From NCBI RefSeq assembly GCF_003334385.1, contig NZ_QOWN01000008.1: a DNA stretch of 64,000 bases. One strand, written 5' to 3'. Every line of letters starts with the position of its first letter. Position 1 is the first letter of the stretch. The notes under the pieces were generated by a model, which worked only from the letters and a program-made list of their open reading frames with translations, did no database searches and had not been told where the DNA came from. Source of the stretch: Escherichia coli. Lineage in GTDB: Bacteria; Pseudomonadota; Gammaproteobacteria; Enterobacterales; Enterobacteriaceae. A program made the translations under genes and the position numbers. Shown piece by piece: positions 28,117-30,744 of the stretch.

Positions 28117-30744
28117 TTATTCTTCTTCTGGCTCGTCGTCAACGTCCACTTCCGGAGCGATTTCATCGTCCCCTTCCGCGGCACTGCCGTCGATGGTATC
28201 CAGATCTTCCTCGTCAACCGGTTCAGCAACACGTTGCAGACCCACTACGTTTTCATCTTCCGCAGTACGGATGAGGATCACGCCCTGGGTGTTACGGCCC
28301 ACGATGCTGATTTCCGAAACGCGAGTACGTACCAGCGTACCGGCATCGGTGATCATCATGATCTGGTCGCAGTCATCTACCTGTACCGCGCCAACAACTA
28401 AACCGTTACGTTCGGTAACCTTGATGGAGATAACCCCTTTCGTCGCACGCGACTTGGTTGGGTATTCCGCCACTGCGGTACGTTTACCGTAACCGTTTTG
28501 CGTTGCGGTGAGGATTGCGCCATCGCCACGAGGCACGATCAGAGAGACGACTTTATCGCCTTCACCTAAGCGAATACCGCGAACACCGGTGGTGTTGCAG
28601 CCCATCGCACGGACAGAAGACTCTTTAAAGCGCACCACTTTACCTTCAGCGGAGAACAGCATTACTTCGTCTTCGCCGCTGGTCAGGTCAACGCCGATCA
28701 GCTCATCGCCGTCAACCAGTTTGATCGCCACTTTACCGGCGGTACGCAGACGGTTGAACTCGGTGAGGACAGTTTTCTTCACGGTACCGTTAGCGGTCGC
28801 CATGAAGACTTTCACGCCTTCTTCAAACTCGGTCACTGGCAGGATCGCAGTGATACGTTCGTCCTGCTCCAGCGGCAGCAGGTTGACGATCGGACGACCG
28901 CGCGCGCCACGAGTGGCTTCCGGCAACTGATAAACTTTCATCGAATAGACGCGACCACGGCTGGAGAAGCACAGAATATGGTCGTGAGTGTTCGCCACCA
29001 GCAGTCGGTCGATAAAGTCTTCTTCTTTAATACGTGCGGCAGATTTACCTTTCCCGCCACGACGCTGCGCTTCGTATTCAGAAAGCGGCTGATACTTAAC
29101 GTAGCCCTGGTGAGAGAGCGTCACGACCACATCTTCCTGGGTGATCAGATCTTCCAGGTTGATGTCTGCGCTGTTGGCGGTGATTTCAGTACGACGTTTG
29201 TCACCGAACTGTTCACGAACCAGCTCCAGCTCTTCACGGATCACTTCCATCAGACGATCGGCGCTACCAAGAATACGCAACAGTTCCGCGATCTGATCCA
29301 GCAGCTCTTTGTATTCGTCGAGCAGTTTTTCGTGCTCAAGACCGGTCAGTTTCTGCAAACGCAGATCCAGAATCGCCTGAGCTTGCTGTTCGGTCAGGTA
29401 GTACAGACCATCACGCACGCCGAACTCTGGCTCCAGCCATTCCGGACGCGCAGCATCGTCGCCAGCACGTTCGAGCATCGCGGCAACGTTGCCCAGCTGC
29501 CACGGATTAGCAACCAGCGCAGTTTTCGCTTCTGCAGGCGTCGGCGCATGACGGATCAGTTCGATGATCGGGTCGATGTTCGCCAGCGCCACGGCTAATG
29601 CTTCAAGGATATGAGCACGATCGCGAGCTTTACGCAGTTCGAAAATAGTACGACGGGTCACCACTTCACGGCGGTGACGAACAAACGCCGCGATGATGTC
29701 TTTCAGGTTCATGATCTTCGGCTGACCATGGTGCAATGCCACCATGTTGATACCGAAAGAAACCTGCAACTGGGTCTGGGAGTAGAGGTTGTTGAGCACA
29801 ACTTCACCGACCGCATCGCGTTTCACTTCAATCACGATGCGCATACCGTCTTTGTCAGACTCGTCACGCAGCGCGCTGATGCCTTCCACGCGTTTTTCTT
29901 TTACCAGTTCCGCAATCTTCTCGATCAGGCGCGCTTTGTTTACCTGATACGGAATTTCGTGGACGATAATGGTTTCACGACCGGTTTTGGCGTCAACTTC
30001 CACTTCTGCGCGAGCGCGGATATACACCTTGCCGCGACCGGTACGGTAAGCTTCTTCAATACCGCGACGACCGTTAATGATTGCCGCCGTCGGGAAGTCC
30101 GGCCCCGGGATGTGTTCCATCAGCCCTTCAATGCTGATGTCTTCATCATCAATATACGCCAGACAACCGTTGATGACTTCCGTCAGGTTGTGCGGCGGGA
30201 TGTTGGTTGCCATACCTACGGCGATACCGGAAGAACCGTTCACCAGCAGGTTAGGAATTTTGGTTGGCATGACGTCCGGAATTTTTTCCGTGCCGTCATA
30301 GTTATCAACGAAATCGACCGTCTCTTTTTCGAGATCGGCCATCAGTTCATGGGCAATTTTCGCCAGACGGATTTCCGTATAACGCATTGCCGCCGCAGAG
30401 TCGCCGTCGATAGAACCGAAGTTACCCTGACCGTCTACCAGCATATAACGCAGCGAGAATGGCTGCGCCATGCGGACGATCGTGTCATAGACCGCCGAGT
30501 CACCATGGGGATGGTATTTACCGATTACGTCACCAACGACACGGGCAGATTTTTTATAGGCTTTGTTCCAGTCATTGCCTAGTACGTTCATGGCGTAAAG
30601 TACGCGACGGTGTACCGGCTTCAGGCCATCTCGGACATCTGGCAGCGCACGGCCAACAATGACCGACATCGCATAATCCAGATAGGAGCTCTTCAGCTCT
30701 TCCTCAATGTTGACCGGTGTAATTTCTCTCGCAAGGTCGCTCAT
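28117..30744 (-). CDS. gyrA: DNA gyrase subunit A
   Basis: 875-aa [50 protein letters not shown]...; active-site Tyr region and acidic C-terminal tail. Confidence 0.98.

Follow-up and report, generated by a model that had tools for sequence, protein, structure and literature searches.

The 64,000-nucleotide stretch of Escherichia coli DNA analysed here (the window) almost certainly carries a quinolone-resistance-determining region (QRDR), namely that of gyrA, a housekeeping gene of the chromosome, in its wild-type reference allele, in a strain close to K-12. Both codons at which the common resistance substitutions fall, 83 and 87, are unchanged. Comparison of all 875 residues of the encoded protein with that of a susceptible reference strain found no amino-acid change, either within residues 67-106 or elsewhere; gyrA is therefore free of resistance substitutions both in the QRDR and in the rest of its length. 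This is a correct negative genotype call of a routine kind and brings no new biology. The allele is already known; it is the textbook reference for a gene that ranks among the best studied in bacteria.

The gyrA gene and its QRDR

The identity of the large minus-strand open reading frame (ORF) as gyrA is beyond reasonable doubt. Over 2,628 bases, its DNA shows no difference from the gyrA annotated in K-12 MG1655, C600 and J53, and many natural E. coli isolates also carry gyrA DNA that is 100% identical to the window copy. Identity of this kind over the whole ORF means that the match is not due to chance. The encoded protein is the same as chain A of PDB entry 6RKS (6rks_A), a solved E. coli GyrA, at 875 of 875 residues, those of the acidic C-terminal tail among them, and 1zi0, a structure of the C-terminal domain, matches residues 535-841. 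Two NCBIfam equivalog models of gyrA are in agreement: TIGR01063, covered from position 1 to 799 of its 800, gives 1310 bits where the cut-off is 877, and NF004043 gives 1258.6 bits where it is 902. A full-gene search requiring at least 80% query coverage found gyrA matches in all 5,426 complete genomes of E. coli (5426/5426).

The genomic setting is that of gyrA as well. The gene is followed by yfaA downstream, and ubiG and yfaL lie upstream and divergent, in the order yfaA-gyrA-ubiG-yfaL that is found in MG1655 and in N18-04097, two genomes whose annotation shares one common GyrA accession, WP_001281242.1. With respect to the MG1655 GyrA (WP_001281242.1; 6RKS chain A), the DNA, the protein and the neighbours yfaA and ubiG are all the same, and no difference exists within the gene. 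The coordinates of the gene, of its parts and of other features of the window are collected in Table 1.

Table 1. Positions in the window of gyrA, its parts and further features mentioned in the text
Feature	Position	Strand	Basis or remark
gyrA CDS, DNA gyrase subunit A	28117..30744	-	875 codons plus stop; ORF list
QRDR, codons 67-106, wild type	30427..30546	-	Translation; identical to reference GyrA
Codon 83, TCG (Ser), wild type	30496..30498	-	Direct read and script; common resistance allele TTG (Leu)
Codon 87, GAC (Asp), wild type	30484..30486	-	Direct read and script; common resistance allele AAC (Asn)
Codon 122, TAT (Tyr), DNA-cleaving active site	30379..30381	-	Codon read; Arg121 precedes
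TGtTATAAT, extended -10 promoter-like element	30789..30797	-	Direct read; 45 bases upstream of gyrA start codon
Terminator-like hairpin	28080..28097	-	Consensus scan; 7-pair stem and T-rich tail, 20 bases after gyrA stop codon
alkB ORF	31-666	-	211 aa
ompC, intact	2971-4074	-	367 aa
MicF antisense RNA	4408-4501	+	114 bits; divergent from ompC
Rfam naRNA4 (REP-type repeat elements)	8162-8238; 8276-8352	-	Between rcsB and rcsC
Rfam naRNA4 (REP-type repeat element)	38531-38601	-	Between nrdA and nrdB
atoD	14772-15434	+	Intact K-12 form
yfaQ, two ORFs	19473-20174; 20177-21121	-	Split by a single-base deletion
yfaS (alpha-2-macroglobulin family)	21122-25636	-	Uninterrupted ORF
Substitutions private to the window	11903, 15596, 16233, 16634, 16767, 23900, 40347, 43048, 43249, 47334, 48537		Against both MG1655 and N18-04097

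The start codon of gyrA, ATG, occupies 30744-30742 on the minus strand, and codon n starts at 30744-3(n-1). A direct read places a Shine-Dalgarno-like motif, GAGGGA, about 10 bases 5' of this ATG. No gyrA promoter was called in a simple two-hexamer scan because a good -35 hexamer is absent; the gyrA promoter presumably relies on a -10 region of the extended type, which fits the TGtTATAAT element. A terminator-like hairpin follows the gene, and the number of such sites found in the region by the consensus scan is no higher than in shuffled sequence. As parts of gyrA, both the promoter-like and the terminator-like elements are plausible by position, with prior knowledge as the other ground. Within the coding sequence, Tyr122, established as the catalytic tyrosine of E. 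coli GyrA, is present.

In the minus-strand read of 30380-30800, codons 81-90 are GGT GAC TCG GCG GTC TAT GAC ACG ATC GTC. The QRDR begins at codon 67 (GCC, 30544-30546) and ends at codon 106 (CAG, 30427-30429), as computed by script. A sequence-only reading of the same DNA had assigned Ser83 and Asp87 to the positions listed in Table 1, and these coordinates proved exact on re-reading; likewise, the interval it gave for the QRDR corresponds exactly to codons 67-106, by codon arithmetic and script alike. The seven codons that it quoted, GAC TCG GCG GTC TAT GAC ACG, are indeed those of the gene, but their label of 81-90 has to be corrected to 82-88. Codons 67-106 were translated and are wild type, not S83L/D87N. 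The entire QRDR matches the reference, which bears out the main statement of that reading, namely, that a classical gyrA fluoroquinolone-resistance mutation is absent.

Alternative readings and meaning for quinolone resistance

Two other readings bear on the genotype itself. GyrA is homologous to ParC, the A subunit of topoisomerase IV, in which Ser80 and Glu84 are presumably the positions equivalent to GyrA 83 and 87; if the ORF were this paralogue, both the numbering of the residues and the name QRDR would be wrong. E. coli ParC has a homologous breakage-reunion domain, and the window ORF does match the Gram-negative parC model TIGR01062 (parC_Gneg) weakly, but its 580.3 bits fall below the cut-off of 628.9, whereas that of the gyrA model TIGR01063 is exceeded (1310 over 877). 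Identity to the solved GyrA across 875 residues, acidic C-terminal tail included, also speaks against parC, as does RefSeq, where identical DNA is annotated as gyrA in the gyrA neighbourhood. The curated cut-offs, the solved structure and synteny thus led to rejection of the parC identity, whose probability is next to nil. A tblastn search of the window with GyrA found no second GyrA/ParC homologue (the next best E-values were 1.7 and 5.1); gyrA alone was returned, in accordance with the earlier remark that parC lies outside the window. The other reading is that a narrow check missed a resistance-relevant gyrA substitution located at codons other than 83 and 87 or entirely beyond the QRDR. Only seven codons had been quoted at the outset, and rarer GyrA substitutions have been reported at residues such as 51, 67, 81, 82, 84, 106 and 196. 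Against this stand the codons for these seven residues, which were read individually and are each wild type, and the agreement of all 875 residues with the reference and of all 2,628 bases with K-12 MG1655. With protein and DNA both identical to the reference, hidden gyrA substitutions were rejected, and their presence is extremely improbable.

The QRDR comprises GyrA residues 67-106, and quinolones bind with the help of a non-catalytic Mg2+ whose coordinated water molecules engage Ser83 and Asp87 through hydrogen bonds; these anchors of the bridge are where resistance mutations fall (PMC9953508). Among the GyrA residues of E. coli, published reviews link Ser83 and Asp87 most often to target-mediated resistance. 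GyrA makes up the breakage-reunion portion of DNA gyrase (A2B2), and fluoroquinolones bind the cleavage complex via the Mg2+-water bridge anchored on the two residues. Substitution of the anchors, typically S83L and then D87N, breaks the bridge and gives rise to target-mediated resistance. With both anchors and every other GyrA residue unchanged, the gyrase encoded by the window is predicted, from established knowledge of drug sensitivity, to be fully quinolone-sensitive.

What this implies for the strain is a wider question. Gyrase is the primary quinolone target in E. coli, where GyrA mutations alone confer approximately 10-fold resistance, ParC mutations alone have no effect and the two together yield 50-100-fold resistance (PMC11019561). 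Given this primary role, a wild-type gyrA argues against high-level target-mediated fluoroquinolone resistance. Plasmid-mediated and chromosome-mediated (non-target) forms of resistance also exist, and the other routes include parC, parE, gyrB, regulators of efflux and porins and the plasmid genes qnr, aac(6')-Ib-cr and qepA (PMC11019561). The strain could be fluoroquinolone-non-susceptible with an untouched gyrA, for example by up-regulated efflux or by qnr, aac(6')-Ib-cr or qepA carried on a plasmid, mechanisms that are independent of gyrA (PMC11019561) and would be encoded outside the window. Among the window's own genes are micF, ompC and inaA, native members of the network for uptake and stress, and nothing abnormal was seen in them. 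On the other side, the status of gyrase as the primary target and the lack of effect of parC mutations alone (PMC11019561) disfavour high-level target-mediated resistance, and the window, collinear with K-12 and N18-04097 except for two single-base indels and the end of an insertion sequence at 1-73, shows no insertion of an acquired gene. An acquired resistance gene near gyrA was rejected on the same ground: positions 5999-54999 are collinear with the two annotated genomes, with only two single-base indels. Non-susceptibility of this origin is unlikely here and, if real, would be well documented already and involve no new mechanism. Because parC, parE, gyrB, the efflux regulators and the plasmid genes lie outside, the overall fluoroquinolone susceptibility is not inferable from the window. 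In this regard, the sequence-only reading is supported as a narrow claim, that is, no gyrA target mutation, and the susceptibility of the strain goes beyond the window.

Frequency of the allele among complete genomes

The occurrence of the allele was assessed by a census of the 5,426 complete E. coli genomes, which were searched by megablast with six mutually exclusive 31-mers spanning codons 80-90. With a word size of 28, a match requires exact identity at codons 81-88. The resistant alleles S83L (TCG>TTG) and S83L+D87N (GAC>AAC) belong to the same gene and locus; the window differs from these alleles in having TCG at 83 and GAC at 87. As shares of a collection of finished RefSeq genomes that is probably enriched in clinical isolates, and not as population frequencies, at least 2,653 of the 5,426 genomes (49%) have the wild-type sequence across codons 81-88 and S83L, alone or together with D87N, is present in at least 2,187 (40%), while 586 (11%) have some other combination outside the six exact 31-mers.

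The 31-mers also distinguish two forms of the silent codon 85 (30490-30492), which is GTC in the window, as in K-12. The wild type comprises 639 genomes with GTC and 2,014 with GTT. S83L alone was found in at least 485 of the 5,426 genomes (72 with GTC and 413 with GTT) and S83L+D87N in at least 1,702 (331 and 1,371, respectively). Across all classified genomes, GTT outnumbers GTC about 3.6-fold (3,798 vs 1,042), and the haplotype of the window, wild type with GTC, is the K-12-like minority version. Both S83L and S83L+D87N occur on GTC and on GTT, and the resistance alleles are thus spread over more than one background.

As a side observation, the full-gene search returned 5,432 gyrA places in the 5,426 genomes, and up to six genomes would therefore have a second gyrA-like place. 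One gyrA place sits on a plasmid-labelled record and contains the 31-mer of S83L+D87N with GTT.

Surroundings of gyrA and differences from the comparison genomes

The window is a K-12-like chromosomal stretch that extends from alkB to arnT, in the order alkB, ompC, micF, rcsDBC, the ato operon, yfaPQSTA, gyrA, ubiG, yfaL, nrdAB, the glp genes, the rhm genes and arnBCADT. It is collinear with MG1655, to which it is 99.96% identical over 42.6 kb with 16 substitutions and one single-base deletion, and with N18-04097, the closest genome, at 99.96% identity over 49 kb. The flanks beyond 5999-54999 are collinear as well, except for window positions 1-73. MicF and ompC, the latter intact, are native porin-regulation loci in which nothing unusual was seen. 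REP-type repeats of the Rfam naRNA4 family lie in the intergenic positions given in Table 1, and a related repeat copy at about 31637-31719, between ubiG and yfaL, was seen only as a blastn repeat match.

Compared with both MG1655 and N18-04097, the window has eleven private substitutions, and five of them are non-synonymous: atoS E179V, atoA V55I, atoE G185D, glpC A164T and Q104E in an ISNCY transposase. The ato genes hold five of the eleven private substitutions and three of the five non-synonymous ones. Two others are located in glpT; they were considered as a lead to fosfomycin resistance and rejected, since both are synonymous (L217 and S150).

Some genes differ in their integrity among the three genomes. 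In atoD, the window has the intact K-12 form at site 14840, whereas the gene is annotated as frameshifted in N18-04097, where one G is missing; the window is free of this lesion. The gene yfaS is uninterrupted in the window and in N18-04097, in contrast to K-12 MG1655, in which it is an annotated pseudogene with an internal stop. In yfaQ, a run of C at about 20185 has lost a single base in comparison with both MG1655 and N18-04097 (TTTGCCCTTTT > TTTGCCTTTT), and the gene is thereby split into two ORFs. The deletion is either a true frameshift or an artefact of sequencing through the homopolymer.

The beginning of the window is of a different nature. Positions 1-73, up to a junction at 73/74, do not belong to alkB and are the end of an IS4-family element that is inserted into the 3' end of this gene. 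The element is annotated as 'IS4-like element IS421 family transposase' and has the terminal repeat ...CAACCCTTAAGTTAGCGCTTATG. The insertion leaves an alkB ORF of 211 aa in the window, whereas the alkB annotated in N18-04097, with its 651 bases, implies an AlkB of 216 aa. The exact junction between the insertion sequence and alkB occurs in only 5 of the 5,426 complete E. coli genomes.
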